Assembly (NCBI GenBank): GCA_034678705.1
Contig: JAXDBP010000030.1
Span: 50,162-114,161, forward strand
Direction: 5' to 3'
DNA length: 64,000 bases
Source of the DNA: Bellilinea sp.
Lineage (GTDB): Bacteria > Chloroflexota > Anaerolineae > Anaerolineales > Anaerolineaceae
A program made the translations under genes and the position numbers. Below the pieces are notes generated by a model. The model was not told the origin of the DNA, did not search any database, and worked only from the letters and a program-made list of their open reading frames with translations. This document shows, in pieces, positions 3,007-42,335 of this stretch (position 1 is its first letter; the number at the start of each line of letters is the position of its first letter).

Positions 3007-3028
3007 ATACTATACTCGGGTATAGTAT
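3007..3028. promoter_or_regulatory. Candidate CsoR/RcnR-family operator palindrome
   Basis: ATACTATAC-TCGG-GTATAGTAT, perfect 9+9 bp inverted repeat about 25 nt upstream of the first gene of the zinc-ribbon/CsoR-like/OsmC cluster. Confidence 0.45.
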
Positions 3029-3053
3029 ATTATCAACCAGGAGGTGCTGAGCA

Positions 3054-3260: not shown

Positions 3261-3305
3261 GCCTGACCAACCGCCTGCGTGCCAGGCGTAGAAAGAAAAA
3301 ACAAT

Positions 3306-3590: not shown

Positions 3591-3653
3591 GCGGGTCCTT
3601 GTTCTCTGCTGGATCACTCCCGGCAAAAATTAGTAAATTCGTATGGAGGCTGA

Positions 3654-4061: not shown

Positions 4062-4185
4062 TTCGAAGACCTTCCTGAACGCGCCGGTTTCCTGACCAGC
4101 CAGATCATGTCCCCCAACTGATCGGTCGGCTCTCCCTGAGTATAATCCCATACACCGCCTCGACCGCGCAGCCCACCTTTCTTGT

Positions 4186-6018: not shown

Positions 6019-6170
6019 GGTCCCATCCTCCTGGTTTGCTCATCTGGACAGAATCAGCTTGGCCGTTGAACGACAGACGAAATGCAATCTCGGACAAACC
6101 AATCTGTTTTTAATTGCATCAACAATTCCTTTTCCTGGGCCTTACGAAACCTGAACGATACCTGTGCTGA

Positions 6171-6662: not shown

Positions 6663-6762
6663 ACACCTGATTGTCCACTATTACGGTTAGAGAATCAAGA
6701 GCCATAACGAGGTTTGTCGAGGTTATGGCTGGAGCATCAGCGCTGAACCAATCTGCCCCGGG

Positions 6763-7497
6763 TTACTGGATAAATGCATTCAGCCACAGGTGCCCGGCAA
6801 GCAGGCGCACGTCTGGATTGGCGGCTGCCCAGTCGCGCAAGTGGGGCACATGCGGGCCGAGCACCAGGCGATTCACCCAGGCGGGGGTGATGTCGAAATT
6901 TGCGTTGGTCGGCAGGGCGTCGCCGCATTGGAATAGCCAGCCGCTGCCCTCGCGAATCGCCACCCCGCAGTGGCCGCGAGTGTGACCGAAGAGCGGAACG
7001 AAGTATATCTCTGGCATGAAGGGCAGCGGAATCGCGGCCAATCCACGCCATTCAGCCGCAGGTTGTTCGTACAGCACCCAGCGAGGACCGTGCTCGACAT
7101 CCCTGCGGTCGTACGCCAGGTCGATCCAGCCGCGCGGATGTTGCATCGCCTCGAACTCCAGCCGGTGGACGTGGACGCGGGCGTGAGGAAAATCCGGCAG
7201 ACCGCCGGCGTGATCGAAATGCAAGTGAGTCTGAAGGATGTCGCGGACATCCTCGGGCCGGTAGCCGAGCCTTGCCACCTGACGGACGGCGGTCTTTTCA
7301 ATATCCTGGACGATGCCGAAATCAGCGTGGAAGAAGCGCATCATGCCCGAGCGAGACTGGTAATCGTGCAGTCCAAGGCCGGTATCGACCAGCGCCAGAC
7401 CCTGGTCGGTTTCCAGAAGGATGCAGGGAGTGCCGATCCGCCAGCGGGGGAACCAGGGTGTCATGGTGGCGCAGTTGAGTATGTGCAGGATGGTCAT
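6763..7497 (-). CDS. MBL-fold metallo-hydrolase
   Basis: HLHFDHAGG (HxHxDH) and a downstream GHTRGH motif. Confidence 0.85.
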   Translation of the reverse strand: MTILHILNCATMTPWFPRWRIGTPCILLETDQGLALVDTGLGLHDYQSRSGMMRFFHADFGIVQDIEKTAVRQVARLGYRPEDVRDILQTHLHFDHAGGLPDFPHARVHVHRLEFEAMQHPRGWIDLAYDRRDVEHGPRWVLYEQPAAEWRGLAAIPLPFMPEIYFVPLFGHTRGHCGVAIREGSGWLFQCGDALPTNANFDITPAWVNRLVLGPHVPHLRDWAAANPDVRLLAGHLWLNAFIQ

Positions 7498-7503
7498 TGG
7501 AAT

Positions 7504-7890
7504 TCAGCCTTTCACGTACGACAGCTTCTCCGTGATCAGCCCGCCGCGGATGCGATAGATGTCTACCCCACGGACGTGACGGCGGTTGCCGCTCGAATCC
7601 AGCCAGGAATAGACCCAGCGCATCACGCAGTGCTCTTCCATGGCAAACACCTCTTCGATATCGATGTGCGGCGAGCGCGAGCCGCGGAAGAAGGATTCCC
7701 AAAAGGCGCGCACTGCCTGCTGGCCCTCGTAGCGCGTCCCCTCGGGCGCAGGCACGGTGTTCTCGAAGACGCAGTCCGCGCTCATCAACCGCATCATCGC
7801 GTCCACGTCGCCGGCGTTGAGCGCATCGTTGAAGCGTACGATCAGCCGAACGACAGCATTCGGATCAGCTGGATTTGCATGCTTATCCAT
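7504..7890 (-). CDS. SnoaL-like / NTF2-fold protein
   Basis: FNDALNAGDVDAMMRLMSADCVFEN. Start moved to ATG 7890 (MDKHANP), which avoids a long overlap with the upstream OsmC gene. Confidence 0.7.
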   Translation of the reverse strand: MDKHANPADPNAVVRLIVRFNDALNAGDVDAMMRLMSADCVFENTVPAPEGTRYEGQQAVRAFWESFFRGSRSPHIDIEEVFAMEEHCVMRWVYSWLDSSGNRRHVRGVDIYRIRGGLITEKLSYVKG

Positions 7891-8317
7891 CACGGCCCTC
7901 CGCGGCATCTGTTTCCTCCGGCAGGATTTCGATCTCATGGACGATCTCGACCGCCTCGCGCAGGGTGGCGTAGGTGGAGCAGTACTTGCTCTGGCTCAGC
8001 TCGACCGTTTTCAGGATGCGCTGCCTGTCCAAACCGCGCCCGCGGATGCGGTAGTGGATGGTGATCTTGCGGAAGCGCCAGGGCGGCTGGTCGTCGCGCT
8101 GGCTTTCCGCGCTGACGGAGACCGCGTTGATTTTTTGGCGCTGTTTGCGCAGGATGGCGACCACATCCCACACGCTGCAGCCGATCAGGCTCAGCGGCAG
8201 CAGATCGGCGCCGTTGACACCGCCGGGCTGGGTCATCACGATCGGAAATCCGTGCCGGTCTTTCAACAGGAACACCTGCTCGCCCTGCCATTCCACGCTG
8301 ACGGTTTCTGTCGCCAT
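7883..8317 (-). CDS. OsmC family protein
   Basis: LSLIGCSVWD and KYCSTYATL. ATG at 8317 preceded by GGAGGT. The 334-aa track ORF is an unsupported N-terminal extension. Confidence 0.8.
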   Translation of the reverse strand: MATETVSVEWQGEQVFLLKDRHGFPIVMTQPGGVNGADLLPLSLIGCSVWDVVAILRKQRQKINAVSVSAESQRDDQPPWRFRKITIHYRIRGRGLDRQRILKTVELSQSKYCSTYATLREAVEIVHEIEILPEETDAAEGRDG

Positions 8318-8373
8318 CTGAACCTCCTGACCTGCCGATTCCTGGTCAGTGTACCTCATTTGATCGGGTGATT

Positions 8374-9924
8374 TCAACTCATCCTTGGTACCTTGTCCTC
8401 CAGCACTGCCCGCAGGCCGTTTTGCGGCGTCCATTCCGCCTTCCAGATCAGCACGGACTGGTCCAGCCAGCCGGGAGCGAGCAGAGCCCGCCGGCCCGCT
8501 GACGGCCAGGCAAGGCTGACCTCCGCCCCGCTCAAGGCGCGAATCGCCCCGTCCGCGGTGATGGCATATTCCGCCTGCTCCTCGCCGGGTTCGCTGCGGA
8601 TGAGCAGGCTGCGGTCGGCGCAGATCTCCGCCAGCAGGCGCCTGCCGGAGGAATCGCCCGCCTGGAGCAGCTCGCGCAGTTCCTCCAGGCAGGTCAGGGT
8701 CCCGTCGCGCCAAAGCAGGGTGTAGCCCGGCACGGTTGCCTGCAGGCGCGCCGTGCTCAGGAACTGTCCACCCAGGTTCGTGTTGGAAAGTTCCAGGATG
8801 CGCTCGCTGCGCAGCTTGTAGCCGACCAGATAAAAATTGATGTCTGCCGTCCCGCCTGACTGTGCTGCCCAGCTGCTGCCGTTCCAAAAGCGCAGGAGAC
8901 CGCCCGGATAGGCGTTGTTATCGTCGCGCATCAGGTGGTAAAACTGAGATGCGCTGAGCGCACCGCTGCGTTGCAGCACCACCCAGTAGGGCGTGTTCGG
9001 TTGAATCACCGGCGGGGATGGCAGGATGAAGCGCACCCAGTGCAGGCCTCGGATGAGGCTGGCTGAGACGGACTGGCTCGACAGCGGCGCCGCGGTGTTC
9101 GGGTTGCCGGAGGCGTCCGGGCAGAGGGTGACCGTGACGCCGTCGCTGCAGCCGCCGGTCTGGTAAAGCCGGACCAGCACCTCGCCGCACTGCCAGGGGC
9201 CGTAACTGGTCTGGAAACTCTGCGCCAGCAGCGAGTCGCTGGTGTTATAGCGCCCGAGGGTTTGAGAGGTGTACGCGGGGCGGATATAGCCCTCGTAGCC
9301 GTCAAACAGGTGCGCATAGCGCCAGCCGATTGTCTCCCACCAGCCGCGGCAGACCAGCCGCAGGCGGATCTGCTCTGGCCTGCCGGGGGATGAAACAGGC
9401 AGGGTCGTGGTGCGGCCTGTCGGCAGGCTGGATGCAGCCAGCCAGGCGTCGCGGGCGGCTTCCGCCTGTTCCTCGACCAGCGAATTGAGGAACAGGACGC
9501 GCTCTTTCACCCCGTACAGACGGATGCTGCGAGCGTCCTCAGCCCAGGGGCTGAAGGTCTTCTCGCCCTGCCATTCGAGATGAGCCTGGCGCTGCCAGTA
9601 CTGCACCGCGACGCGGTTGGTCATCCGCCTCATATCCAGATTCCAGGCGAGCGCCCCATACTGCGCCTCGATGCGCGCCAGGTAGCCCCACCAGACTGGC
9701 TCAGCGGCGGCGTTGAAGATGCGCACACCGCAGCCGGCCAGCGTGGAGAGCCCGGCAGGAAATCCGCCGCGCGGTGGGCGGTCGGCGATTTCCGCGGTCA
9801 GGTCTGCCTGCAGCGGACCGCCTTCGGCGCACCAGCTCAACTTTTCCACGCGCAGATCCAGCCCCGGCTGGGGCAACCAGCCGCCGGATGCGCGCTCGAA
9901 CAGGATCGAAAATTGCTCGCTCAT
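8374..9924 (-). CDS. Hypothetical phage-module protein (possible tail/adsorption component)
   Basis: 516-aa ORF. ATGA overlap with the upstream ORF. No motif recognised. Confidence 0.6.
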   Translation of the reverse strand: MSEQFSILFERASGGWLPQPGLDLRVEKLSWCAEGGPLQADLTAEIADRPPRGGFPAGLSTLAGCGVRIFNAAAEPVWWGYLARIEAQYGALAWNLDMRRMTNRVAVQYWQRQAHLEWQGEKTFSPWAEDARSIRLYGVKERVLFLNSLVEEQAEAARDAWLAASSLPTGRTTTLPVSSPGRPEQIRLRLVCRGWWETIGWRYAHLFDGYEGYIRPAYTSQTLGRYNTSDSLLAQSFQTSYGPWQCGEVLVRLYQTGGCSDGVTVTLCPDASGNPNTAAPLSSQSVSASLIRGLHWVRFILPSPPVIQPNTPYWVVLQRSGALSASQFYHLMRDDNNAYPGGLLRFWNGSSWAAQSGGTADINFYLVGYKLRSERILELSNTNLGGQFLSTARLQATVPGYTLLWRDGTLTCLEELRELLQAGDSSGRRLLAEICADRSLLIRSEPGEEQAEYAITADGAIRALSGAEVSLAWPSAGRRALLAPGWLDQSVLIWKAEWTPQNGLRAVLEDKVPRMS

Positions 9925-11267
9925 GGCTGCTGGACGCGCGCTTTCTGGTAGATCATCACCTGAGCCAGCGCGTCGACCGGCGCGCCGGCGGCGGTTTCGA
10001 ACAGGAAGTAGATTCGGTTTTCACGCCCCGGCTGGAGTGTGATTGGCGAGCCGGTCAGCAGGTGCGAAACATGCTGACTGCCGCTGCTCGATTGCACAGC
10101 GTACACCCTGTTCACGCGCCCGTCGGATATCAGGGTATGGCCTGGCGCCAACCCGCCCAGCGGGCGCAGGTGCTGGAATGAGCTTGCCGGCAGCAGATGG
10201 ACGAAATCGATGCTCAGCGACTTGGTCCCGGCGGCGGTGCATTCAGCCAGTATATGCAGCTCCAGGGGCTGGTAAGCGCCCCCGCCCATTTCGTCCGGCG
10301 GCAGGCGCAGGGCGGGCAGCGGCGCCAGGTACCGGTCGGGAGCGAGCAGCGTCTGCGCGGTTCGCAGCAGTTCCCCGCCGCCGGGGTTGACAACGCTCCA
10401 GCGCAGGTAGATGCCCGCGGCGGGCAGGGCTGCCAGGCGCAGCAGCGGGCGGAAGAGGCAGGCGCGCATATACTGGAGCTGAGACGGGCTGAGCAGCCAT
10501 TTCCACAGCGAGACCTCGCTCTGGGAGGTCCATTCAGCCAAGGCCAAGCGGCCGGCGGAGCAGCTCGAGTCAGCCGGCTGGCTGCTGCCCGTGCAGCCGC
10601 TGCCCGCCGTGCCGGCCTCGCCTTCGAGGACATGCTCGAAGGCGCCGCCGGTGTCCTTCAGGTCGAAGCCGGCGGCGATGTAGCAATCCAGCAGGGCTGC
10701 CGGAAACTCTTGCGGCAGGATCAGGCGCACCTGCACCGGGCAAGGCAGTGTACCGGTGACTTCTGCCGGACCGGCGTCGACGAAGTTCTGGTGACCGCTG
10801 GTTCCATCGCAATGGTTGCGGATCGCCAGGCCGTTCCAGATTTCCGTCCCGTTCTGGTTGCTGAGATCTAGAGCGCGCAGGTTCTCTTCCCAGTAGTCCG
10901 CCCGGGTGAGATACAGGCGCAGGATCTGCACACTGCGCTTGCGGTCGTTCAAACCGCCGTCGAGCAGCTCGACTTTGCCGGCGACCACCCGCGCGGAGAG
11001 TGTCGTCATGCCGGCGGCGCTTTGAAGGAAGAGGTAGGCGTCGTTGATGCGCGCCTGGCTGAGCGAAATTTTTTCTCCCAGGCTTTGCACCAGCGTCTGG
11101 ATGCCCGACCCGCGCAGGGCTAGGTCGATCACTTCTTCGACCAGCCCGCCGGGGAGCGCCTCGAGGCGCTCCTTGCGGCGGGCGCCGACCACCGGCGGGC
11201 TGACCGAGCTACCGTGCAGGTGCAGGGCGTTCGCCCCGTCCTGATCGGCAAGATAGAGTCTCTCCAT
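9921..11267 (-). CDS. Hypothetical phage-module protein (possible tail/baseplate component)
   Basis: 448-aa ORF in the same operon-like array. No motif recognised. Confidence 0.6.
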   Translation of the reverse strand: MERLYLADQDGANALHLHGSSVSPPVVGARRKERLEALPGGLVEEVIDLALRGSGIQTLVQSLGEKISLSQARINDAYLFLQSAAGMTTLSARVVAGKVELLDGGLNDRKRSVQILRLYLTRADYWEENLRALDLSNQNGTEIWNGLAIRNHCDGTSGHQNFVDAGPAEVTGTLPCPVQVRLILPQEFPAALLDCYIAAGFDLKDTGGAFEHVLEGEAGTAGSGCTGSSQPADSSCSAGRLALAEWTSQSEVSLWKWLLSPSQLQYMRACLFRPLLRLAALPAAGIYLRWSVVNPGGGELLRTAQTLLAPDRYLAPLPALRLPPDEMGGGAYQPLELHILAECTAAGTKSLSIDFVHLLPASSFQHLRPLGGLAPGHTLISDGRVNRVYAVQSSSGSQHVSHLLTGSPITLQPGRENRIYFLFETAAGAPVDALAQVMIYQKARVQQP

Positions 11268-11310
11268 GAGTCATTCTCCTCTGGATCAATCGATCCGGTC
11301 AGGCCGCGCC

Positions 11311-11766
11311 TCAACCCAGGTCGCCGTCCAGGCGCCAGCCGGCGGGGAGTTCATCCTCTCCGGTAGGGAAGGGCGCATCCGCCGAGCTTTGCAGCTCGCT
11401 CGTCCGCAACCGAGCCAGCAGGGCCAGCCCGTACTGGAATTGCTTGAGCAGCCCGCTGCCGGCGGCGGCGTAGGCCTGGCAGACGCCTGGCTGGAAGTTG
11501 TACAGGTCGGCGCGGCCGGCTGCCAGCATGAAGAGCGCGTACGCCGTTGCGCCGCGCGCCAGCAGTGATGCCAGCCCGGCGGGTATATCGGTCGCGACGG
11601 CGCCGTCCAGGCTGGCGAGGCTCCAGGCCTGACCGGCTGCCTGGTTGAGGTCATCCAGCGCCTGGTGAATACATTCACCGATTTCGGCCTCGCTCCAGGT
11701 CAGGCCGGGGCTGTCCTTCAAAAGGCAGCGCACCCGGGCGGTGATGGAGGTCAGACTGGCGCTCAT
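11311..11766 (-). CDS. Hypothetical phage-module protein (possible head-tail adaptor)
   Basis: 151-aa ORF. ATGA overlap with the 63-aa ORF upstream. Confidence 0.5.
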   Translation of the reverse strand: MSASLTSITARVRCLLKDSPGLTWSEAEIGECIHQALDDLNQAAGQAWSLASLDGAVATDIPAGLASLLARGATAYALFMLAAGRADLYNFQPGVCQAYAAAGSGLLKQFQYGLALLARLRTSELQSSADAPFPTGEDELPAGWRLDGDLG

Positions 11767-11954
11767 GGCTGCACCGCCCGGGTGAGCTTCTGCCCGCTCT
11801 TGAAAAGGATCACGATGCGGCCGGGGTAGATCTTCCAGGCCAGCACCTGCGCGCGGGGCATGCCCAGCTCAGCACAGGCCTGGTCAAGCCAGACCTCGAC
11901 GGCAGGTTTGCACGCCCGGGCGCGGGAAAGTGGTTTGCGGCTGGATACGGACAT
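11763..11954 (-). CDS. Small hypothetical phage-module protein
   Basis: 63-aa ORF in register with the array. Confidence 0.4.
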   Translation of the reverse strand: MSVSSRKPLSRARACKPAVEVWLDQACAELGMPRAQVLAWKIYPGRIVILFKSGQKLTRAVQP

Positions 11955-11990
11955 TGGCGGACTTCCTTGCCGGGGGTGGGCTGGCGGGGC

Positions 11991-12200
11991 TCAACTGCCC
12001 CGCCGTCCGGCATCCTCGATGGCCACGCCGGTGCTGTAGACCGCCAGCGCGGCGATCAGCGCCTGGACGGCCTGCCAGCCGTCCATCTGTCCGTTGCAGT
12101 AGCCGGCGGCGATGGCCGCCAGCGCAGCCAGCAGCACCCAGAACTTGCGCGAGCGCAGCATCATCTTGATTTGCTGCCAGAAAGTCAGATTCTCATTCAT
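11991..12200 (-). CDS. Holin-like small membrane protein
   Basis: 69 aa with two hydrophobic helices (FWVLLAALAAIAAGY and AVQALIAALAVYSTGVAI) and a charged C-terminus. Overlaps the lysin stop by 8 nt. Confidence 0.45.
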   Translation of the reverse strand: MNENLTFWQQIKMMLRSRKFWVLLAALAAIAAGYCNGQMDGWQAVQALIAALAVYSTGVAIEDAGRRGS

Positions 12201-13026
12201 TTTGGTTCTCCTCTACTTGGGGATGGATTTCGGGGTGAGCCAGCCAGAGCCTTTTGAGCATCTCCGACGGCTCGAGGGTCATACCGGGCGATTCGGGCGG
12301 ATCAGGGCGGCACCAGGCGCGCAGCTGCGCCAGGCCGCCGTTGAAGAAGTTCAAATCCAGCGGCGAGCGCGCCCCTGGCAGGATGAATTTCTCCGCGCTG
12401 AACTGCCAGAAGTGCCAGCCGCGGCAGTCCTCCGGCAGAGCCGGGGAGCTGATCCTGGGGAAATGCTGGCGCAACTGTTCCCAACTGCAGCTCACCCGCC
12501 CGCTGCCGTATGGGTAATGCGCCAGCCAGAGATCCCACTGCGGAAGCCAGGCGAGCATCGCCCTGGCGTAGTCGCGCACGAAGCTGGCGCGGGTGTAGAT
12601 CAGCACCGGCAGGCCGCTGACCGCCTGGATTTTGGCGGCAACGGTTTTGGCGCTCTGGCTGATGCGGTTGGGCGGGATGAAGCGGGTGACACGCCTGGCT
12701 TGCCATTCGTTCCAATCCTGCCAGTACTGCTCGACGTCGACCGCGGCGAAGGCTACCTGCTTGCCTTCGATCGCCGCCAGGAAGTTTTCAGCCTGGCGCC
12801 GGTCGTCGTGGGTCGGGTCGCACCAGTGATAGGCGCCGCAGATCAGCCCGGCGGAGAGCGCGCCCTGCAGGTGCTGCTCGAAGCGCGGGTCGCGCATGGA
12901 CGCTCCCTGCGCAGCTTTGAGGATGGCAAAGGCGACTCCACCGGCCTTGAGCTGAGCCCAGTCCAGGCGTATGTCCCAGCGGCTGGCGTCGATTCCAAGG
13001 GTGTAGGTCATCGGGGTGTTGTCCAT
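12193..13026 (-). CDS. GH25 family lysozyme/muramidase (endolysin)
   Basis: GIDASRWD..DWAQLKAGGVAFAILKAAQG...GAYHW...VDVEQ pattern typical of GH25. Confidence 0.8.
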   Translation of the reverse strand: MDNTPMTYTLGIDASRWDIRLDWAQLKAGGVAFAILKAAQGASMRDPRFEQHLQGALSAGLICGAYHWCDPTHDDRRQAENFLAAIEGKQVAFAAVDVEQYWQDWNEWQARRVTRFIPPNRISQSAKTVAAKIQAVSGLPVLIYTRASFVRDYARAMLAWLPQWDLWLAHYPYGSGRVSCSWEQLRQHFPRISSPALPEDCRGWHFWQFSAEKFILPGARSPLDLNFFNGGLAQLRAWCRPDPPESPGMTLEPSEMLKRLWLAHPEIHPQVEENQNE

Positions 13027-13046
13027 TTTGTCCTTTTGCCTTCTTT

Positions 13047-13120
13047 GTCATTCCGAGCGAAGCGAGGAATCTTTCCCTCCGTCCTTGAAGATTTCTCCTC
13101 GCTACGCTCGTCGAAATGAC
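13047..13120. repeat. REP/MITE-like imperfect hairpin repeat (GTCATTCCGAGCGAAGCGAGGAATC family)
   Basis: Near-identical to the copies at 33070-33144 and 33215-33289. The two halves are imperfectly inverted relative to each other. Confidence 0.8.
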
Positions 13121-13141
13121 ATCTTGGGACAGGAATGGCAG

Positions 13142-15031
13142 CTAAACCACATTCGCCTTGTAAAGCGGGCGGTAGTCGGCGACGAAGACGCTCAGCCAGT
13201 GGCGCACCTTCATACGCACCTCGTCGTTGCTGAACAGCGCCCCGCTGGTCTCTGAGTCGGAGATGAAGATCTCCGGCAGCAGACCGAAGCGCTCGGCGAC
13301 GATGATCGCCGGCGCCAGGCGCGGATCGGCGACCGCGGCCCAGTCGCTGGCGTCGCTGAACTCCGGACAGGTGATCACATCACCCATCTCGCCGCGCTGC
13401 AGGTTCTCGGAGAAGATGTTGGCCTCGCGCTCGAAGGACGGGTAGAGGATGCGCATGGCGGTCAGGCGCAGCGAGCGCGGCACGACGCAGTAACGCGCGT
13501 CCAGCGCCAGCCTGGGCGCCGTCCCGCCGCTGGCCAGCAGCATCGGCTGCTCGTAGATCGCCTGGCTGGCGGCCTCCCAGGACTCAGACGAGAGCGCCGC
13601 GCTGCCCAGGTTGGCGTGGTGGCTGGCGTCGAAGACGTTGTAGCTGTCCGCCATCTGCGGGCCGGCGCCGCTGTTGGCGGTGAAGACCGAGCCGACCAGC
13701 GCCGAGATGCGCCGCAGCGCCGCCGAGGCCAGCTTGTAGGGGTACTGGCGCAGCTTGTGGGTCTCGTCGCGCTCGAACATCTCCAGCGTCAGGCCGATGT
13801 AGCCGCCGTACTTGGTCCAGCCGGCGGTTTCGGCCGAGTCCTTGAGCTCCAGCTCGGTGTAGGGCGCGCCCTCATCCACGCTGGGCAGCACGGTCACCTC
13901 GCCGACCAGCACGCCGCTGATGGTGTGCAGGCTGGTGAAGTGCTCGACCGAGACGATCGGCTCCCACCAGCGGTAGCCGCTGCGCCCGAGCTCCTGCCAG
14001 CCCATCACGATCAGCTTGTTGAGCGCGTTTTTAAGCAGGCCGGGCAGGGTGGCGCTGGTGGCGAGCGCCGCCCGCTCGGGGTAGTAGCCGCCGTAGAAGC
14101 TGGTGTCGCCGGTCAGCATGGTGTACAGCTCGCGGATGCCGGAGAGGCGCGCGGTCTTGACCGACTTCAGGCCCTCCGGGCGTTCGGCGCCGAGCAGGTC
14201 GTAGGCCGCCGCGGTGAGCTGGTCCTCGCTGGAGACCATGCCGCTGATCCGCCCGGGTCCCTGCACGACCGCGCCGCCGGTCAACCGGGCGGCCAGATCG
14301 CGCCCGTCCTGAAGGGCGGCCCGCAACTCGGCCGGTTCGAAGATCCGCCCGCTGAACTGGGCGCGGATGCGCTCTGCCAGCGGCGCGGGCAGGTGCGCAG
14401 CCGTCAGGCTCTGCTCGAGCAGGCAGGCGCACATCTCCGCGCGCAGGGCGCGGGCCTTTTCCAGCTCGTCTGCGGCGGATTCGGGCGCGGCGGCAGCCGG
14501 CAATGAATTGGTTTGGGTTGCTTCGTCCATGGTGGGTTTACCTCCTTTGATCGTTTGTCTGGTTTGCTGATTGAGCGCGCGCAGGAAGGCCCCGCCGCGC
14601 GCAGGATTCATGACCACGTCCACCGAGAGCACGCGCAGGATCTTGCTCACCCTGCGCCCGCTGGCGGAGAAGAGAATATCGGCCGAGAAACCGACGTCCG
14701 GCCGGACGTCGCTGTTCAGCGCCGCCTGGGCCAGTTGATTGAGAATAGGTCCGCCCGGGCCGACCGCCTTGAGCGTCAGGCGGATGCCCTGGCGGGCGTC
14801 ATCCCAGACCGGCGAGTGCAGCACGCCGGCCAGGTCGCGCACGGAGTGACCCCAGAGGGAGTGGTCCAGGTAACATTCGCGACCGTCCCACAGCGCCAGC
14901 GACTCGCGCAGTACCTCGGCGGGAAAATCCCAGCCGTTGCCGGCGCCGGCGCTGATCGCCAGGATCTCGAACTTGCCGCCCTGCGGCGATGAGGAAAGGA
15001 GCAGGCGCTCCTGGATGGTTTCGTCTGACAT
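13142..15031 (-). CDS. Prohead protease (HK97 family-like) fused to major capsid protein
   Basis: N-terminus YLDHSLWGHSV ... GFSADILF resembles the His/Ser of a prohead protease. The C-terminal roughly 400 aa look capsid-like. Position after the portal gene fits. Confidence 0.65.
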   Translation of the reverse strand: MSDETIQERLLLSSSPQGGKFEILAISAGAGNGWDFPAEVLRESLALWDGRECYLDHSLWGHSVRDLAGVLHSPVWDDARQGIRLTLKAVGPGGPILNQLAQAALNSDVRPDVGFSADILFSASGRRVSKILRVLSVDVVMNPARGGAFLRALNQQTRQTIKGGKPTMDEATQTNSLPAAAAPESAADELEKARALRAEMCACLLEQSLTAAHLPAPLAERIRAQFSGRIFEPAELRAALQDGRDLAARLTGGAVVQGPGRISGMVSSEDQLTAAAYDLLGAERPEGLKSVKTARLSGIRELYTMLTGDTSFYGGYYPERAALATSATLPGLLKNALNKLIVMGWQELGRSGYRWWEPIVSVEHFTSLHTISGVLVGEVTVLPSVDEGAPYTELELKDSAETAGWTKYGGYIGLTLEMFERDETHKLRQYPYKLASAALRRISALVGSVFTANSGAGPQMADSYNVFDASHHANLGSAALSSESWEAASQAIYEQPMLLASGGTAPRLALDARYCVVPRSLRLTAMRILYPSFEREANIFSENLQRGEMGDVITCPEFSDASDWAAVADPRLAPAIIVAERFGLLPEIFISDSETSGALFSNDEVRMKVRHWLSVFVADYRPLYKANVV

Positions 15032-15041
15032 GGCTGCCTCC

Positions 15042-16415
15042 TCAGGATGGCTGGGTTCCCAACGGATGGGGCGGCTGATCGCCGGAACGCCCGCGGGCGA
15101 GCAGGTCGTTCACGTCGGCAACCTCGCCGAAGAAGCGGTAGGTCAGGCGCAGCATCTCGGCGTCGTCGATCAGCCCGCGGTCGCGCAGCTGCGCCAGCAC
15201 GCCGATGATGTGCCGTGCCGCCAGCCCCAATTGCAGGTTGTCGCGCGAGGATAGATCCGCGCCGTGCACTTCCAAGCGCGCCTGCGCATCGACGCGCCCG
15301 CGCCCGTTGACCGCGTGCTCGGCCAGCGCCCGCCGGTTGACGACCGCCCTCAGCACGTCGGCCAGCAGCCAGAGGAAGTAGGCCTGGCGCTGCTCGAAGC
15401 GGCGGTAGGTCGGCCCGCCGGCGGCCTCGGCGGTGGTGCGCGTGGCCGATTCCGGCTCGGCCAGGAAGTGCAATGGCAGCCCGGCGCCGGCAGCGATCAT
15501 CTTCTTCAGCGCCAGCCCGTCGGTGTTGGCCTCGTCCGATTCCAGGCGCGGATGGATCACCTCCCAGCTCTCGCTCTCGTCGGTCACCAGGATCGAGCCG
15601 GGCGAGGGCGGCGCGGCGTTGAGCTTTTGCTGGCGCGCCAGGCGCTCGCTCTCGCTGGTGAAGCGCGCCCTGACCACGTAGAGGAAGGCGGTGCGGAATC
15701 GGTTCAGCCTGGCGCGGTCTTCCAGCCAATTAGCGTAGCGGCTCAGCCAGCGCAGCACAGGGGCCAGGTCCGGCTCGCCCCACAGCGCGCCAGCCGGGCG
15801 GTTGACCGCGTAGTGCAGCACGACCGTCGGAAAGCCGCCCTCGGGGCCGGGCGCGTCGCTCTCGGCGTCATAGACCGGCCAGGGCCGCGGCTGGGGCTGT
15901 TCCAGCGTGGGGCGCGGCAATACGGCAGTTTCCTGATCCACATCGTTCGGGCGGTGCTGAATTTCGGCGACCTCGCTGGCCGGCACTGCGCGTACGTAGC
16001 TCATCCCGGCCGAGTCGGTCGAGAGCAGTACGAACAGGTTTCCGCTGCGCGAAAGCTCGTCGCACCACTCGCAGATGCGCACCGCCATCCGGTTGAGCGG
16101 GTGATTCCAGAAGGCCTCTAGAAAGCGCGCGGTCGGCGCGTGCTTGCAGCGCAGGCTGACCCCGCTACCGACCACATACTGGGTGGTCAGCTCGATCAGC
16201 CGGCGCGCCAGCGGATTCAGCCGCCAGGCCTCCAGCGACTGCTCCAGCAGCGTCTGACGGTCGGGGATCAGCCGGTCACGTGGGCCGCCGTTCAGGGCGC
16301 GGCTGCCGAGCAGAAAGGTCGCGTCGGTTTCCTCGGCCAGGCCCGCGCGCACCTGCCGGCGGATTTCGCCGGCGAACAGGCGCCTGACCAGTCCGGATAA
16401 GAGCGAAGATGGCAT
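15042..16415 (-). CDS. Phage portal protein
   Basis: 457 aa. RLNPLARRLIELTTQYVVGSGV block. Lies between the terminase and capsid genes. Confidence 0.75.
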   Translation of the reverse strand: MPSSLLSGLVRRLFAGEIRRQVRAGLAEETDATFLLGSRALNGGPRDRLIPDRQTLLEQSLEAWRLNPLARRLIELTTQYVVGSGVSLRCKHAPTARFLEAFWNHPLNRMAVRICEWCDELSRSGNLFVLLSTDSAGMSYVRAVPASEVAEIQHRPNDVDQETAVLPRPTLEQPQPRPWPVYDAESDAPGPEGGFPTVVLHYAVNRPAGALWGEPDLAPVLRWLSRYANWLEDRARLNRFRTAFLYVVRARFTSESERLARQQKLNAAPPSPGSILVTDESESWEVIHPRLESDEANTDGLALKKMIAAGAGLPLHFLAEPESATRTTAEAAGGPTYRRFEQRQAYFLWLLADVLRAVVNRRALAEHAVNGRGRVDAQARLEVHGADLSSRDNLQLGLAARHIIGVLAQLRDRGLIDDAEMLRLTYRFFGEVADVNDLLARGRSGDQPPHPLGTQPS

Positions 16416-16452
16416 GTCACCTCCTTGGGTGGAATGGGATGAGTAGGTCGGC

Positions 16453-17865
16453 TTAAAAGCCGCTGTCCAGCTCCCTGAGCGGGTCGCGCGTCCCGTCCGG
16501 CACGCCCCAGCGCATGCGCTTCTCGGGTCCGGGCAGGATCTGATACTGGCAGTTCCTCAACTGAGCCTGGAAGGGCTCCGACAGGGGAGCGGTCTCGCCG
16601 GCCGGTTCCTTCCAGCGCCCGCTGTCGACGACCGCCAGGAAATCCCAGCCGAGCTTGCTCTTGCTGGCGGCGCTGAACTGGAAGGCGATCACCCGCCCGG
16701 GCATGGCGCGGCTGAGAAAGGCCGCCAGCCCTGCGCCGACGCCGGTGGCATCCACTACCAGTTGACGCGCCTGCCAGGCTTCGGCCAGCGCCAGCAGTTC
16801 AGCGTACAGCCGGTCGTGCTTCTGGCCGGTCCACTGGCGGCGGTGGACGCAGCGGTAGGTCGGAGCGCGCAGCAGCGGATCGCTCAGCGTGGTCAGGTCG
16901 ACCTCGACGACGGTCAGCGCGGTCGCGTCCCGCCCCGGATTGCGCAGTTGCGCGGCTTCGCCGGGAGAGCCCTCCTCGGCGCCCTCGTCCGCGCCGGCCA
17001 CGTCCAGCAGCATGGCATAGAGCCGCCCCGGCAGCGGCGCATCCAGCGCGGCGTGGCTGCCGCGCATCAGCGCGCGGCGCGCGGGCGGGAACATGCCGCC
17101 GTCGCCGTCGATCTCCTCGCTGTAGAACTGGGTGCGGATCAGCGGGTGGCTGCGGCCCAGGCGGGCGACCTGCGCGGCGACGAAGCGCCGGTAGGCCGGA
17201 ACCTCAGCCGCCACCCGGTCAGCGTCGGCGACGAAGACGCGCTGCAGGCCGTCATGACGCTGGGCTTCGCGGGCGGCGCGCAGCTCGCGCGCAAGCAGCG
17301 TCTGGCTGGTCCAGGCCGTGCCCCAGAAGACGCGCGTGGCATTGGTCGAGGCGGCCATCGGCGCAATTTCCTTCTCGTATTTTTCGATCTGGATGTCCTG
17401 CGCCTCATCGACCGAAAGCAGCAGGTTGGCCGTCGCGCCGACGATGTTGGCCTCCGGCGATCCGCTCAGGAAGAAGATGCGCGCCTTGCCGACGCGGTAG
17501 ATGTAGCCCGACTCCTTCTGCCAGAGGCCGCGGGTGAGCAGGTTGCGCTCCAGCACGCGCTGCAGCCGGCGCATGGCGTTCAGCGACTGCGGCTTCCAGG
17601 TTGGGGATATCTTGACCATCTCGGCGTCCAGCTCCTGGCTGACCGCCAGCAGGTAGGTTTCGATCTGAGCCTGCAGCTCGTTCTTACCGGACTGGCGCGG
17701 GAACATGACCACGAAGGTCAACCCCTGCTTGAGCAGGGCAGAGCGCACCAGCGCGCGCATCACCTCGGCCTGGTAGCTGCGCAGCCGGATGCCCGAGCCG
17801 TAGCGGGCGAAGGCGACCGGGTCGGCGAGCAGGGACTTCTGGATTTCGAGCGGGATCGTGTTCAT
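16453..17865 (-). CDS. Terminase large subunit
   Basis: Walker A-like FPRQSGKNE, Walker B LLLSVDEAQ, C-terminal nuclease-like LLDVAG / VVDATGVG. Confidence 0.8.
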   Translation of the reverse strand: MNTIPLEIQKSLLADPVAFARYGSGIRLRSYQAEVMRALVRSALLKQGLTFVVMFPRQSGKNELQAQIETYLLAVSQELDAEMVKISPTWKPQSLNAMRRLQRVLERNLLTRGLWQKESGYIYRVGKARIFFLSGSPEANIVGATANLLLSVDEAQDIQIEKYEKEIAPMAASTNATRVFWGTAWTSQTLLARELRAAREAQRHDGLQRVFVADADRVAAEVPAYRRFVAAQVARLGRSHPLIRTQFYSEEIDGDGGMFPPARRALMRGSHAALDAPLPGRLYAMLLDVAGADEGAEEGSPGEAAQLRNPGRDATALTVVEVDLTTLSDPLLRAPTYRCVHRRQWTGQKHDRLYAELLALAEAWQARQLVVDATGVGAGLAAFLSRAMPGRVIAFQFSAASKSKLGWDFLAVVDSGRWKEPAGETAPLSEPFQAQLRNCQYQILPGPEKRMRWGVPDGTRDPLRELDSGF

Positions 17866-17982
17866 CGCGGCATGGTGCGGATGGGGGCGGGCGGCGCAGG
17901 GGTGCCGGGCGCGGTGAGGGAAATGCGGCGCGCGGAGGGCTGGGAGATGGCCGTGCCGCCGCCCGCCCAGGGGGGAACCGGG

Positions 17983-18321
17983 TCAGCCCAGCCCGCTGGT
18001 GAGGATGGACTGGATGCCCTTCTCTTTCAGCTCCGCGGCAATCTCGCGGATCGCGTCGCGGGTGTCGCCCTCCGGCGCGGCGCTCTCGCCCAGCTCGCGG
18101 CTGGCCTTGAGGATGCGCGCCAGGTGGTCGCTCGCCTCCGAAACGGCTTTGAGCGTCCTGAGCAGCTCGTCGAGCGAATCGGCCTGGTCGACCCTGGCCT
18201 TCGCCTCGCGGATCAGCAGGCGTACCAGGCGGATCTCCTGGCTGAGCGGGTTTTTCGCCTCGATCGATTTGCGCCGGGGGGTTTTGGGCTGGGCGGGGGT
18301 GGGGTGGGGTTCAGGGGGCAT
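17983..18321 (-). CDS. Small coiled-coil protein (possible small terminase or scaffold)
   Basis: Start taken at MPPEPHP (ATG 18321). Position upstream of TerL. No motif recognised. Confidence 0.4.
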   Translation of the reverse strand: MPPEPHPTPAQPKTPRRKSIEAKNPLSQEIRLVRLLIREAKARVDQADSLDELLRTLKAVSEASDHLARILKASRELGESAAPEGDTRDAIREIAAELKEKGIQSILTSGLG

Positions 18322-18521
18322 GGCTTGACACCGGTGATATAATAGAAAATATGTTCTGTTTTCAGCGTCAGTATGCCACACACTCGGGCTGCAAGACAAC
18401 CTGCAGTTATCTGCAACCCGATCAGCAGGTACTGGAAGACACAGGGTTGGACCGCGGTCTCTTCAAATCAGGTACAATTAGAGGCGCATGGTGTAAATTA
18501 GCTTTAATAACGGAGGTTCTC

Positions 18522-19103
18522 GTGAATCCAATGATCTCTCATTCACTCGAGTCGCTCGAAATTCACCCGGTCACGCCCGAGCGCTGGCCTGACATGCAGC
18601 AATTGTTCAGTACACACCGCGTCTCGGGCGGCTGCTGGTGCATGTGGTGGCGAATCCCGCGCAGCGAGTTCAACAAGGGCGGCGCGAGCAACCGCCAGGC
18701 GATGGAGAACCTGATCCACAGCGGCGTCATCCCCGGGCTGCTGGCTTACCTGGACGGCGTCCCAGCCGGCTGGATTTCGATCGGTCCGCGCGATGAGTAC
18801 GGCGCGCTGGAGCGCTCGACCAAATTCAAGCGGCTGGACGATAAGCCGGTCTGGTCGATCGTTTGTTTTTTCATAGGCAAACCGTATAGAGGGCGCGGGC
18901 TGATGGAGCCGCTGATCCGCGCCGCGGTAACTTACGCCCGCGAACACGGCGCGAGAGTCATCGAGGCTTATCCGGTCGATCCTCCGGGCAGGGTATCCGC
19001 CGACAGCCTGTTCACTGGCCTGGCCAAGGTCTTCGCCGAGATCGGCTTCGTCGAGATGACCCGCCCCTCGCCCACCCGTCCAATTCTGCGCTTCGTCCTT
19101 TGA
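18522..19103 (+). CDS. GNAT family N-acetyltransferase
   Basis: GWISIGPRDEY...FFIGKPYRGRGLMEPLIRAAVTYAREHG. GGAGG RBS 5 nt before GTG 18522, with an alternative ATG at 18531. Confidence 0.8.
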   Translation: MNPMISHSLESLEIHPVTPERWPDMQQLFSTHRVSGGCWCMWWRIPRSEFNKGGASNRQAMENLIHSGVIPGLLAYLDGVPAGWISIGPRDEYGALERSTKFKRLDDKPVWSIVCFFIGKPYRGRGLMEPLIRAAVTYAREHGARVIEAYPVDPPGRVSADSLFTGLAKVFAEIGFVEMTRPSPTRPILRFVL

Positions 19104-38117: not shown

Positions 38118-38978
38118 TCACTCGGAATAGACTCTCACCCCGTTGATCAGCGACCAGTGGGTGTGGATGATTCGCCACTGCCCGTCGATCTGCCGGAAGA
38201 CCTCGCTGCAGTTCCACGGCTTGCGCCCGGCGACCGCACCGTCAGGCCTCAGTCGGGTTGAGAGGAAGCGGTAGAACAGCACCGCCATCTTTCCGCAGAC
38301 CCGCACCTGCGGATCGATGAAATCCATCGCCTCGCAGCTAATCTTGCCGGCGCGCCTGGCGTACTCGGCGCTCAGCGCCTCGCGCCCGTCGATGCGCCGC
38401 TCGGTGCCGGTGTCGAAGTAGGTCACATCCGGCGCGCTGATTTCGATGAAGCCCCACGGATCGCCCCGGTCGTAGCGCGCCATCGCCGCGGTTTCGAGCG
38501 CCATCAGCTCGGCCAGCACGCCGCTGTACTCCGTCGGCTCCGAACGGACCGGTAGCGGTACCTCCACCAGATCGGGCTGGCGGTGTCTGACATACGACCA
38601 GTGGGTGTGGACAATCTGCCACTGCCCGTTTCGCCGAAAATAGACCTCGGTCGCGTTCCAGTGGTTCTGACCTTTAACCGTCCCGTCCGGATTCGTGGCG
38701 GTCGAGCGGTAGTTGTAGCTGAGCAGCGCTGCGTCGCCGGCGGTCACCACCCTGGGCAGAAGGAATTCGGAGATCTGGTAATTGACCTTGCCGCGAACCG
38801 GATCCATGTATGCCCTGTACGCCTCCAGGTCGAGGATCGGTCTGGTCAGGCCCGGGTCGACGTAGAGGATGTCCTCGGCGCTGAGCTCGACAAAGCCCCA
38901 CGGATCGCCGCACCGCCAGCGTTCCATGGCGGAGTTTTCGAGAGAGAGGATCAGGTTTTCCATCATTGGCGCCTCCAA
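38118..38978 (-). CDS. Tandem NTF2-like (SnoaL/DUF4440) domain protein
   Basis: Internal duplication: ...RWRCGDPWGFVELSAEDILY... and ...RYDRGDPWGFIEISAPDVTY... Confidence 0.7.
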   Translation of the reverse strand: MEAPMMENLILSLENSAMERWRCGDPWGFVELSAEDILYVDPGLTRPILDLEAYRAYMDPVRGKVNYQISEFLLPRVVTAGDAALLSYNYRSTATNPDGTVKGQNHWNATEVYFRRNGQWQIVHTHWSYVRHRQPDLVEVPLPVRSEPTEYSGVLAELMALETAAMARYDRGDPWGFIEISAPDVTYFDTGTERRIDGREALSAEYARRAGKISCEAMDFIDPQVRVCGKMAVLFYRFLSTRLRPDGAVAGRKPWNCSEVFRQIDGQWRIIHTHWSLINGVRVYSE

Positions 38979-39107
38979 TATAGAAAATTATTTCTATATA
39001 TTATACCATCCTGTCCATTTTCTCAGCAAGAGGTAATTAATTGGGCGCAGGGATCGATATGCATGGGAGTACGGGAAATTCCCCCTGCGTCGGTGGACAT
39101 TCCTTGT

Positions 39108-39608
39108 TTATATATCCTGCCCGTTGATCGTCTGCTTCACCGTCACCGGCACAGAGCCCATCAGCGCCTTCTCGGTGAAGCACATCTGCCGCGCCAGGCG
39201 AATCAGCTCGGTGATCTGCTCCGCCGGCTCATCCGATTCGATCGAGATTTCCACCTCGAAGCCGTCGCAAAAGCCCTCGGCGTCGCCGCGCAGCACCGAG
39301 CCCTGCTCGTGAAAGTGGGCTGTGACCCGTACGTGATCCTTGCGGAGGGTCAGCTTGCGTTTTGCCGCAACCTGCGACAAATGCGAACTCAGTCAAAGCG
39401 CCATGCCGGCGGTGAAGTAGGTCAGCGGGGTGGGCGCGGTGCCCTCGCCGCCGGGCATGTAGCTGCCCTCGTCGCTGATGAAGGCATAGCTGCGCCCGGT
39501 CTCCGGCTGCCCGGCGATGACCTGTTTGCGCCATTTTTCGATCGAGCTGGCTTCGGCCACCACCTTAATGTCGCGGAAGCCCGCCGGTGGTTTTTCGTCA
39601 TTGATCAT
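39108..39608 (-). CDS. OsmC-family protein with in-frame TGA (candidate selenocysteine) at the first catalytic Cys position
   Basis: ORFs 39393..39608 and 39108..39380 are in the same frame, separated by TGA (39393-39395) plus 4 codons. The joined protein reads APTPLTYFTAGMAL-U-LSSHLS ... ARQMCFTEKAL. Confidence 0.6.
39361..39381 (-). other. Candidate bacterial SECIS hairpin
   Basis: UUUGUCGCA-GGU-UGCGGCAAA, a perfect 9-bp stem starting 12 nt after the UGA, with the apical GGU 21-23 nt downstream. Confidence 0.5.
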
Positions 39609-39837
39609 GATGCCTCCAACCTCTCCTGTTATTTTAACGCGAGTCAGCTTTTAACGGGTCTCCCGGCGGCGATAAAATCATCCAGCAAGCGCTATTTCTC
39701 ATCTGAATATTAATCTTAAGAAAAGGTTCCTGTGGTATGATAGCCCTGTTTGTGCAGGAATTTGATTAATAACATCCGGTAGTCGTCTGTCACTCATTCT
39801 TCCTGCGTCTGTGATTTTACGATTAAGGGAGAGAGAA

Positions 39838-40716
39838 ATGACCATGAAGATAGTGACCGACACCGGTTGCGATATTCCAGCCGAGAAGGCGGATGCGCTT
39901 GGGATCATCCGCGTGCCATTCAGCCTGACCTTCGCCGGCGCCACCCACACCAGCGACAGCCTGGATCCGGCAGTTTTCTACAAAATGCTCAAGGACAATC
40001 CTGATCTTTACCCGACCACTTCTCAGCCATCCGCCGGACAGTTCGTCGAGGTCTACGAAAAGCTGGTCAAGGAGGGGCATGAGATCCTCTCCCTGCATAT
40101 TTCCTCGGCTCTGAGCGGTACCTACAACTCGGCGGTCGCTGCCGCGGAGATCATCCGCCAGCGGTACCAGGACGCCAAAATCCACCTGTGGGATACCCGC
40201 ACCCTCTCGGTTGCCGAGGGCTGGCAGGTGCTGGCAGCCGCCAGCCTGCTCCGCGCAGGCAAAGGGCTGGAGGAGGTCGAAGCCACCCTGAGCCGGCTGC
40301 GCGAGAATGTCCGCTTCTTTTTCACCCTCGACACGCTCAAATACCTGATCCACGGCGGACGAATCAGCCACATCAAAGGCTTGATGGCCTCGCTGCTCAA
40401 CATCCGCCCGATCATCACGGTCAATCCGGAAGGCAGGTACGCCGAGACCGGCAAGTTTGTTTCCTTCCGCCGCGCCTTGCAGGGACTCGTCCCCACCGTG
40501 CGCGGATTGTTCGACCAGGCGCGCGAACTGCGCGTCCACGTCGTTCACGGCGATAATCCCGAGGGCGTTTCCAGCCTGATTGCCCACCTGGCCGAGAGCT
40601 TCCGCTGCCGCTTCGATCCGGTTCTGCGCGGAGACGTGGTCCTGGGCGCCCATACCGGCGAGAGCATCGTCGGCATGGCGGTCGGTTACGCCGAGGACCT
40701 GGCTCTGGTGGCTTAA
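39838..40716 (+). CDS. DegV family protein (second copy)
   Basis: MKIVTDTGCDIP... DegV layout. Start at ATG 39838. Confidence 0.85.
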   Translation: MTMKIVTDTGCDIPAEKADALGIIRVPFSLTFAGATHTSDSLDPAVFYKMLKDNPDLYPTTSQPSAGQFVEVYEKLVKEGHEILSLHISSALSGTYNSAVAAAEIIRQRYQDAKIHLWDTRTLSVAEGWQVLAAASLLRAGKGLEEVEATLSRLRENVRFFFTLDTLKYLIHGGRISHIKGLMASLLNIRPIITVNPEGRYAETGKFVSFRRALQGLVPTVRGLFDQARELRVHVVHGDNPEGVSSLIAHLAESFRCRFDPVLRGDVVLGAHTGESIVGMAVGYAEDLALVA

Positions 40717-40739: not shown

Positions 40740-42335
40740 TCACGCCGCCAGCGCTTTGACCAGATACAGCTCCCCGCATTCAAATCCGCGCGCCTGGTAG
40801 TAGCGCCGCGTTCCGATGGCGGCGATGACCGCCAGGCGCTCGAACCCTGCCGCGCGCGCGACCTGCTCGGCTTCGGTCAGCAGGCGCGTGCCCAGGCCGC
40901 TGTGCTGGGCTGCCCCCTGCTGATCCACCCCCACCGGCAGCGACTGCCCGTAGACGTGCACCTCGCGGATCAGCGCTGCGCCCTCCAGGTCGCTCAGGTC
41001 AAGCTTGGGCGCGCCCGGCTGCGGCAGCGAGAGGCGCAGGTAGCCGGCGATCCTGCCCTGCGGCGTGCGGAAGTGGAGGAAGTGCTCCTCGGCGGCCTCG
41101 GCCGGGTAGGTCAGGTCGTGCAGTGACACCGCCCGCGGGTCGATCGGCTCGCCGCGCACCTCGTGACAGCGGATGCAGCCGCAGGCCTGCCCGCGCCGGG
41201 CCAGCTCGGCCTGCACGTCCATGCGCAGGCTGGTGCGTTTGTTGCCGGCTACCACGTGGGTCGAGGGGATGTCGCGGATCACCCGGTTGACCCGGCAGTA
41301 GGCCGGGATGCCCGGCTTGAGCTCGGCGATCAGCTCGATTAATTCCTCAGTGGCGTAGGGCCGGTACTCGCCGCGCTGCCAGTGCGCGTGCAGTTCGGTG
41401 CCCTCCAGCAGCTGGCAGGGGTAGATCTTGATCTCGTCCGGGCAATAGCCCTGCCACAGCCGGGCAAAGTCGGCCCGGTCGGATTCGAGCGTCGCGCCGA
41501 GCAGGTTGGGCATCCAGTGCAGCACCACCTTGAAGCCCGCCGTGCGCAGCAGGGCGCAGGCATGCAGCGTCTGCGCGGCGCTGTGACCGCGCTGGTTCAG
41601 CTCCAGGATGCGGTCGTCCAGCGACTGCGCGCCCATCTGCACCTTGGTTACCCCCAGGTAGCGCAGCCAGGCGATCTCTTTTGGCGTGATCTCGTCCGGG
41701 CGGGTCTCGATCACCAGCCCGACGTTGCGCTGAGCGGCGGTCTCGTTCAGGCGCTGAGCCTCATCCAGGGTAGCGGAATCGACCCCGTTCATCGCGTCGA
41801 AGCAGCGCTGCACGAACCACTCCTGATAGTCGCGCCGATAGGCGCTCCAGGTGCCGCCCAGGATGAGCAGCTCGATCTTGTCAGTCGGGTGGCCGTTGGC
41901 CGCCAGAGCCTGGATGCGGCTGGCGACCTGTGCGTAGGGGTCGAAGCCGTGCTGGACGGCGCGCGCCGCGCCGGGCTCGTCCGGCAGGTAGCTCTTCGGC
42001 AGGCGCACGTCGTCCGGGCAGAAGATGCATTTGCCCGGGCAGGGGTAGGGCTTGGTCAGCACCGTCACCGTGGTCACGCCCGAGAGCGTGCGCACCGGCT
42101 TCATACGGATGCGCCCGAGCAACTCAAGATCGGGCGCCAGCTCGCCGGCGGCGACCAGCTCGTGATAGGCTGCCACCAGCATCGACTTGGACAGATAGCC
42201 GCCGCCCGGCAGGGGATGCCGGCGCAACGCCTGGAAGGCGTCCTGCCCGCGGTGCACTTCGTCCAGCACGTCGCGGGCGGCGGACAGTTTATCGGCGGTC
42301 AGCTGGCGGGTTTGCTGCCAGTGGTCCTTGTCCAT
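40740..42335 (-). CDS. elp3: Elp3-type radical SAM/GNAT tRNA uridine(34) modification enzyme
   Basis: KPVRTLSGVTTVTVLTKPYPCPGKCIFCP radical-SAM cluster. C-terminal REVHVYG...QHSGLGTRLL...IGTRRYYQARGF acetyltransferase domain. Confidence 0.9.
   Translation of the reverse strand: MDKDHWQQTRQLTADKLSAARDVLDEVHRGQDAFQALRRHPLPGGGYLSKSMLVAAYHELVAAGELAPDLELLGRIRMKPVRTLSGVTTVTVLTKPYPCPGKCIFCPDDVRLPKSYLPDEPGAARAVQHGFDPYAQVASRIQALAANGHPTDKIELLILGGTWSAYRRDYQEWFVQRCFDAMNGVDSATLDEAQRLNETAAQRNVGLVIETRPDEITPKEIAWLRYLGVTKVQMGAQSLDDRILELNQRGHSAAQTLHACALLRTAGFKVVLHWMPNLLGATLESDRADFARLWQGYCPDEIKIYPCQLLEGTELHAHWQRGEYRPYATEELIELIAELKPGIPAYCRVNRVIRDIPSTHVVAGNKRTSLRMDVQAELARRGQACGCIRCHEVRGEPIDPRAVSLHDLTYPAEAAEEHFLHFRTPQGRIAGYLRLSLPQPGAPKLDLSDLEGAALIREVHVYGQSLPVGVDQQGAAQHSGLGTRLLTEAEQVARAAGFERLAVIAAIGTRRYYQARGFECGELYLVKALAA

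Follow-up and report, generated by a model that had tools for sequence, protein, structure and literature searches.

The minus-strand interval 39108..39608 of the window (i.e., the whole 64,000-nucleotide stretch of Bellilinea sp. DNA analyzed here) very probably holds one intact OsmC-family gene with a selenocysteine (Sec) codon, UGA, rather than a broken gene or two separate open reading frames (ORFs); judging from the sequence comparisons presented below, the internal stop codon almost certainly encodes Sec. For annotation, this means that the locus should be entered as a single 166-residue selenoprotein (U72), and neither as two small ORFs nor as a pseudogene.

Gene structure and protein family

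As had been predicted, two minus-strand ORFs in the same frame, 39393..39608 (71 aa) and 39108..39380 (90 aa, with a TTG start), are separated by only one TGA codon (39393-39395) and four sense codons (CTG AGT TCG CAT), and translation of 39108..39608 through the TGA yields 166 codons ending in a TAA stop; every element of this arrangement was borne out by the sequence. The locus comprises the following features, each given with the evidence for it:

39108..39608, minus strand: predicted selenoprotein coding sequence, OsmC-related (seleno)protein (translation, Pfam, NCBIfam and 80 Anaerolineae orthologues)
39393..39395, minus strand: in-frame UGA, codon 72, almost certainly read as Sec at the peroxidatic position (Cys in homologues and first Cys of Ohr; TGA in 71 of 80 orthologous loci)
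39361..39381, minus strand: SECIS-like hairpin, 9-bp stem with one U.G pair, apical GGU at 39370-39372 (fold, covariation, folding energies of Sec and Cys forms, and third-position divergence)
39364-39378, minus strand: conserved hairpin core of six pairs and the loop (covariation in 72 sequences)
39180..39182, minus strand: codon TGC for Cys143, the presumed resolving cysteine (invariant C143-F144; second Cys of Ohr structures)
39613..39617, minus strand: Shine-Dalgarno sequence GGAGG, 4 nt 5′ of the ATG at 39606-39608 (sequence reading)

The ATG at 39606-39608 coincides with the start position of the homologues in the alignment. An ORF on the opposite strand, 38583..39713 (+), encoding 376 aa, spans the whole selenoprotein gene; because homology backs the minus-strand gene, this antisense ORF is most likely spurious, and it is of a type common at approximately 60% G+C.

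Protein searches of the window product were run with Cys placed at position 72. The resulting product matched the Pfam family OsmC (PF02566) across the TGA, with residues 54-158 aligned to the full profile (positions 1-100 of 100) at 54.6 bits (gathering threshold 27.5; E = 1.5e-14), and it matched the NCBIfam family NF041052 (OsmC_like_Se, "OsmC-related (seleno)protein") at 135.1 bits (cut-off 95; E = 1.6e-39), in an alignment covering profile positions 5-144 of 144 (i.e., 140 of the 144 positions). Both matches uphold the OsmC-family assignment of the original prediction. The Ohr equivalog models TIGR03561 and NF052637 remained below their cut-offs (32.8 vs. 88.85 bits and 42.3 vs. 240 bits, respectively), and the column that holds the catalytic Glu of Ohr (NPEQLF) is occupied by Leu in the family of the window protein; because of these two observations, the gene was not filed as Ohr. 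Given the Leu at this column, the chemistry of the family may also differ from that of canonical Ohr. The best protein-database match to the window protein is 78% identical, and a 48%-identical Anaerolineales homologue is named OsmC-related (seleno)protein at NCBI.

Comparison of the family profile with the PDB returned the OsmC-like structure 3cje (E = 1e-16) as well as several Ohr structures. In these alignments, position 72 falls on the first Cys of the Ohr proteins with known structures (..GYAAC-F..) and on the Cys of 3cje, and position 72 and C143 occupy the columns of the two Cys residues in the Ohr chains 3eer and 6mjn, in agreement with the prediction that the TGA stands at the first catalytic Cys and that the second conserved Cys is retained. 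The family alignment presents C143-F144 as invariant, together with an invariant motif of the family's own (DEGxYxPGGEGxAPxPLxYF). The fold was examined on the closest true Cys orthologue (P0002), which is 77% identical to the window protein. Its AlphaFold model (pLDDT 82) places the Cys equivalent to U72 on a long helix (62-84); the top 41 PDB matches to this model were, without exception, OsmC/Ohr proteins or OsmC-like entries from structural genomics, led by 3cje (TM 0.67/0.75), and the family of the window protein is thus predicted to have the OsmC/Ohr fold.

Two other OsmC copies, which had also been pointed out from the sequence, are present in the window at 3654..4061 (+) and approximately 7883..8300 (-). 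In both genes, the first redox position is a Cys (LAGCTAVD and LIGCSVWD); they are YhfA-like in appearance and lie in or near a prophage-like block (36..19000) that includes several large ORFs without an assigned family.

Conservation of the TGA codon in related genomes

A scan for orthologues, using one genome per species, recovered 80 loci encoding proteins 60-85% identical to the window protein; these loci come from MAGs of Anaerolineae or other Chloroflexota, from Bellilinea caldifistulae GOMI-1, and from one MAG labelled Syntrophomonadaceae. The codon aligned with the window TGA is TGA in 71 of the 80 species-level loci, TGC in seven, and TGT in two; B. caldifistulae GOMI-1, a cultured relative, is among the carriers of TGA. 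Cys is encoded at this column in nine genomic loci and in more than 50 database proteins, and it is the sole sense replacement seen, a pattern that is expected for a Sec codon at a redox site. The orthologue in the Syntrophomonadaceae-labelled MAG (L065; SLSE01000177.1) is a Sec form on a 3.9-kb contig, all others being from Chloroflexota; its presence there could reflect a binning error or horizontal transfer.

A single-base change turns TGC or TGT into TGA, and neither the tRNA search nor the ORF scans of the window, described below, identified Sec machinery, two points that would fit a pseudogene, i.e., a dead or dying gene in which a Cys codon has mutated to TGA. However, the same TGA is shared by the 71 species-level genomes mentioned above, and in all 72 Sec forms (i.e., the 71 TGA loci and the window copy) the frame stays open for 94-103 codons past the TGA, as it does in the Cys forms. 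Divergence per site at codon positions 1, 2, and 3 was 0.15, 0.13, and 0.58 upstream of the TGA and 0.28, 0.20, and 0.63 downstream of it; third-position divergence is far above that at first and second positions in both halves, and both halves are therefore under purifying selection. No independent disruptions of the gene were seen, a possibility that had been raised along with the original prediction. The hairpin downstream of the TGA, described below, is likewise conserved and covarying, and the window copy is the most stable of the whole orthologue set. Loss of function by mutation is thus highly improbable for the window gene, and at the family level a pseudogene is effectively refuted.

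The expectation that automated annotation would split the gene is matched by the protein database, which contains, besides full-length Cys homologues, two products with W at the TGA position and dozens of C-terminal fragments of 91-92 aa that start just past this column; the nearest homologue in the database is given W at this column, yet its DNA reads TGA there. Public protein collections thus hold many truncated or mistranslated entries for the OsmC_like_Se family. The in-frame TTG found five codons past the TGA, and the many 91-92 aa database proteins that start at the position of this TTG, could also be read as signs of a true split gene, in which ribosomes terminate at the UGA and reinitiate at TTG 39380, and the two products (71 and 90 aa) together form an OsmC fold. 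However, no Shine-Dalgarno sequence precedes TTG 39380; the codon at the TTG position is CTG, GTT, ATT, ATA, CTA, CTT, or GTA in 24 of the 72 Sec forms, and 14 of the 72 present no ATG, GTG, or TTG within 14 codons of the TGA. A split at this point would also cost the protein its catalytic residue and interrupt the central helix, and the revertants swap TGA for Cys specifically. We consider two assembling polypeptides extremely unlikely, and a single Sec-containing chain the preferred reading of the locus.

The two database gene calls that render the codon as W raise the further question of whether the UGA is decoded without selenium, as Trp, Cys, or Gly, either through near-cognate decoding or under an altered code. 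These W calls, however, are gene-caller artefacts on TGA. TGA is also the terminator of seven of the 19 window genes with an identified family, as well as of 26 of 81 orthologues of the selenoprotein gene, and the genetic code is therefore standard. In addition, plain read-through needs no fdhF-like hairpin with a GGU loop at a fixed distance, and the catalytic position accepts Cys as its sole alternative. Selenium-free decoding of codon 72 is thus very unlikely as compared to insertion of Sec.

The SECIS-like hairpin and its loss in cysteine forms

The hairpin UUUGUCGCA-GGU-UGCGGCAAA occupies 39381..39361, with its first base 12 nt past the UGA and its apical GGU 21-23 nt after the A of the UGA (i.e., nt 24-26 counted from the U). 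The original prediction had called it perfect; its position, spacing, and loop were confirmed, but the stem is not entirely Watson-Crick, as one of the nine pairs is a U.G wobble. Bacterial SECIS elements have been characterized as stable hairpins located directly past the UGA, with a small apical loop that contains a G (PMC1088965), and the window hairpin presents a 9-bp stem and a GGU loop at the distance given above, with a folding energy of -11.8 kcal/mol. This energy was obtained for the 33-nt hairpin segment, which had z = -2.78, with one of 200 shuffled sequences folding equally well; a 61-nt segment around the hairpin showed no significant excess of stability (z = -0.14). As a single sequence, the window hairpin is thus moderately unusual and only suggestive, and because the 61-nt fold is not significant, the SECIS claim was not rested on folding energy alone. 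Rfam searches at gathering thresholds over the window gave no match to a SECIS model, and a permissive Rfam scan of 39300-39450 returned no SECIS match and only two chance matches (E = 3.9 and 5.8); Rfam is in effect without a usable bacterial SECIS family.

The comparison of the 72 Sec forms provided stronger evidence for a conserved structure. Counted from the U of the UGA, nt 19-26 (TCGCAGGT) and 28-30 (GCG) are invariant in these sequences, with the exception of position 19, and the invariant bases include third-codon positions (G21, G24, and G30). Two pairs of the stem vary in a compensatory manner among the 69 distinct sequences: pair 18-32 is G-C in 56, U-A in nine, and A-U in four, while pair 19-31 is U-A in 39, U-G in 24, and A-U in six, with no sequence leaving either pair unpaired. 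The covariation score was 0.159, as compared to 0.055 in shuffled alignments (none of 500 reached 0.159) and to no more than 0.072 when the pairing partners were slid. Changes in the 3′ arm alter the encoded amino acid (A, T, K, I, S, and N), and they are matched on the 5′ arm by synonymous or Ser/Thr changes. The inner six pairs are conserved across the family, while the outer three pairs of the window stem are lineage-specific. Third-position divergence also drops to 0.31, i.e., by about half, over codons +1 to +13.

Sec and Cys forms differ in the same region. The mean folding energy of nt +10 to +42 is -8.5 kcal/mol in Sec forms and -2.5 kcal/mol in the nine genomic Cys forms, in which ACC CAG GTG GCC encodes the same T/S-Q-V-A peptide. 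The conservation of the hairpin in related genomes, proposed as a check on the prediction, was thus seen with compensatory changes in the Sec forms, and the hairpin is absent from the established Cys clade. Based on these comparisons, the hairpin is classified as a SECIS-like element with covariation support, to which SelB would bind.

The whole window was also scanned on both strands (64 kb) for TGA codons that have 40 or more open codons on either side and, 17-31 nt downstream, a hairpin of 5 bp or more with a GGU loop. This crude scan passed two sites, the TGA at 39393-39395 and one at 9391..9393 (+). The latter has a 7-bp hairpin 18 nt downstream and was judged a chance hit, being antisense to the ORF 8374..9924 (516 aa, no assigned family); the scan thus yielded no further selenoprotein candidate in the window.

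In a rough neighbour-joining tree, distant Cys homologues fall outside one large Sec clade, while other Cys forms are nested at several points inside it. This topology suggests a single origin of Sec, from a Cys ancestor, followed by at least three reversions to Cys. The nested Cys forms present the hairpin in different states: one TGC locus (L087, 301-801) has kept the complete hairpin (-8.9 kcal/mol), another (L084, 494-1006) has kept six hairpin pairs, and a TGT locus (L086, 301-804) as well as a nine-member Cys clade have lost it, which suggests repeated recent Sec-to-Cys conversions with hairpin remnants at graded stages of decay. If true, this graded decay in revertants would form a natural time series in which to follow how a SECIS is lost and what an Ohr/OsmC-type peroxidase gains from Sec as compared to Cys.

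Proposed function, gene surroundings, and comparison with known systems

The gene product would be a thiol-type hydroperoxidase of the OsmC/Ohr fold in which the first (peroxidatic) Cys is replaced by Sec. Following the established bacterial Sec pathway, the hairpin 12-32 nt past UGA-72 would offer its apical GGU to SelB.GTP.Sec-tRNASec, and SelB would bring Sec, instead of release factor 2, to the UGA in the ribosomal A site, allowing the 166-residue protein to be completed. If catalysis resembles that of Ohr/OsmC, a hydroperoxide would be attacked by the selenolate of U72, which lies on the long central helix; the selenenic acid would be resolved by Cys143 to a selenenylsulfide, which an external dithiol reductant would then reduce. 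Sec insertion, SelB binding, peroxidase activity, and the identity of the reductant are all points that we infer. To our knowledge, no member of the OsmC_like_Se family has been biochemically characterized or experimentally tied to selenium incorporation; the Sec/Cys pairs with decaying hairpins described above represent good material for such characterization.

ARAGORN identified no tRNA-Sec in the 64-kb window or in the 3-kb regions flanking the 80 related loci, and no selA, selB, or selD was identified when 30 of the larger window ORFs were compared with Pfam and NCBIfam. These negative results weigh against the Sec reading, as do the lack of a second candidate in the window and of a bulged U in the stem. 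The Sec-decoding trait has been reported in Chloroflexi (PMC5322559, PMC1794560); taken together with these reports that some Chloroflexi decode Sec, the predicted gene indicates that the source organism should have a working Sec system and a selenium need for part of its peroxide defence. ARAGORN also called a tRNA-Arg(gcg) at 41539..41615 (+), which is probably a false positive, as the Rfam tRNA model gave it no support; the call lies inside, and antisense to, a radical-SAM ORF (40740..42335, minus strand).

Other families identified among the 30 scanned ORFs include prophage capsid and portal proteins, PolB, RpoD, ComEC, cbiMQO, nuoDFGH, and DegV. The following features come from the family scan:

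36..2042, plus strand: type-B DNA polymerase (PolB)
13142..15031, minus strand: phage capsid protein
15042..16415, minus strand: lambda-type portal protein (weak match)
38118..38978, minus strand: tandem SnoaL/DUF4440 gene, located downstream of the selenoprotein gene

A perfect palindrome, ATAGAAAATTATTTCTAT, is located at 38980..38997, with a TATAAT-like box on one side and the GGAGG/ATG of the SnoaL/DUF4440 gene on the other. Approximately 0.06 matches to this palindrome would be expected by chance, and a copy with two mismatches is found at 18342..18359; the palindrome at 38980..38997 may be an operator. Two DegV/FakB-family paralogues are encoded at 2017..2862 (-) and 39811..40716 (+), the second of which is transcribed divergently to the selenoprotein gene, with 202 bp of intergenic sequence between the two. 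None of the eight window neighbours recurs beside the orthologues of the selenoprotein gene, and the commonest neighbour family was present in only 19 of the 80 loci; because there is no conserved gene neighbourhood, neither an operon partner nor a reductant can be deduced from gene context.

The window family shares its fold with the Ohr/OsmC reductases (e.g., P. aeruginosa Ohr, 1n2f; E. coli OsmC, 1nye; and V. cholerae Ohr, 3eer), as well as the two redox columns, of which the first lies on a long helix and the second close to where a later helix ends. Unlike these proteins, the window family has a predicted Sec in place of the peroxidatic Cys, an N-terminal extension, its DEGxYxPGGEGxAPxPLxYF motif, and Leu at the Glu column.

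With regard to the hairpin, the MG1655 sequence showed that the apex of the experimentally defined E. coli fdhF SECIS is GCA-GGUC-UGC, as stated in the original prediction; its GGU lies at nt 22-24 from the U of the UGA. The two elements resemble each other in the GCA-GGU apex, in the location within the coding sequence directly past the UGA, and in a similar distance, but the window GGU lies 2 nt further downstream (nt 24-26) and the bulged U in the upper stem of fdhF has no counterpart in the window stem. The loops also differ, being GGUC in fdhF and GGU in the window (or AGGUU if the closing A-U pair opens); the window stem has 9 bp, of which 6 bp are conserved in the family. E. coli SelB requires the bulged U in fdhF, a requirement that need not extend to SelB of Chloroflexota.

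OsmC-like selenoproteins were described in 2005 from the Sargasso Sea, as three sequences assigned to COG1765 with a UxxT motif, for which SECIS elements were presented (PMC1088965). The GOS survey yielded them again (PMC2398784), and recent reviews include them (PMC9312934, PMC13188914). The marine proteins reported by Zhang and Gladyshev share with the window protein the OsmC Pfam domain, the predicted replacement of the first redox Cys by Sec, and, directly past the UGA, a SECIS-like hairpin with a G in its small apical loop. They differ in that they have UxxT and belong to COG1765 (YhfA), while the window family has U-L-x-S; in addition, the window Sec protein has no BLAST similarity to a YhfA-type paralogue in the same window (E = 6.7). 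Based on this motif and on the dissimilarity to YhfA, the Anaerolineae proteins may represent a different branch from the marine sequences. The Anaerolineae clade is characterized by a UxxS motif, the DEGxYxPGGEG motif, and closest similarity to 3cje and Ohr; that it forms a subfamily apart from the marine COG1765-type proteins, which were compared by description only, is a tentative and rather doubtful proposal. The clade would be unusual in being Sec-dominant, with Sec in approximately 89% of species. The window gene is a further member of NF041052 (OsmC_like_Se), showing no difference from that family, and the OsmC-family selenoprotein gene reported here is thus genuine but of an already known kind, represented by an NCBI-curated family and by publications since 2005; given this curation and the 2005 report, the wider gain is modest.
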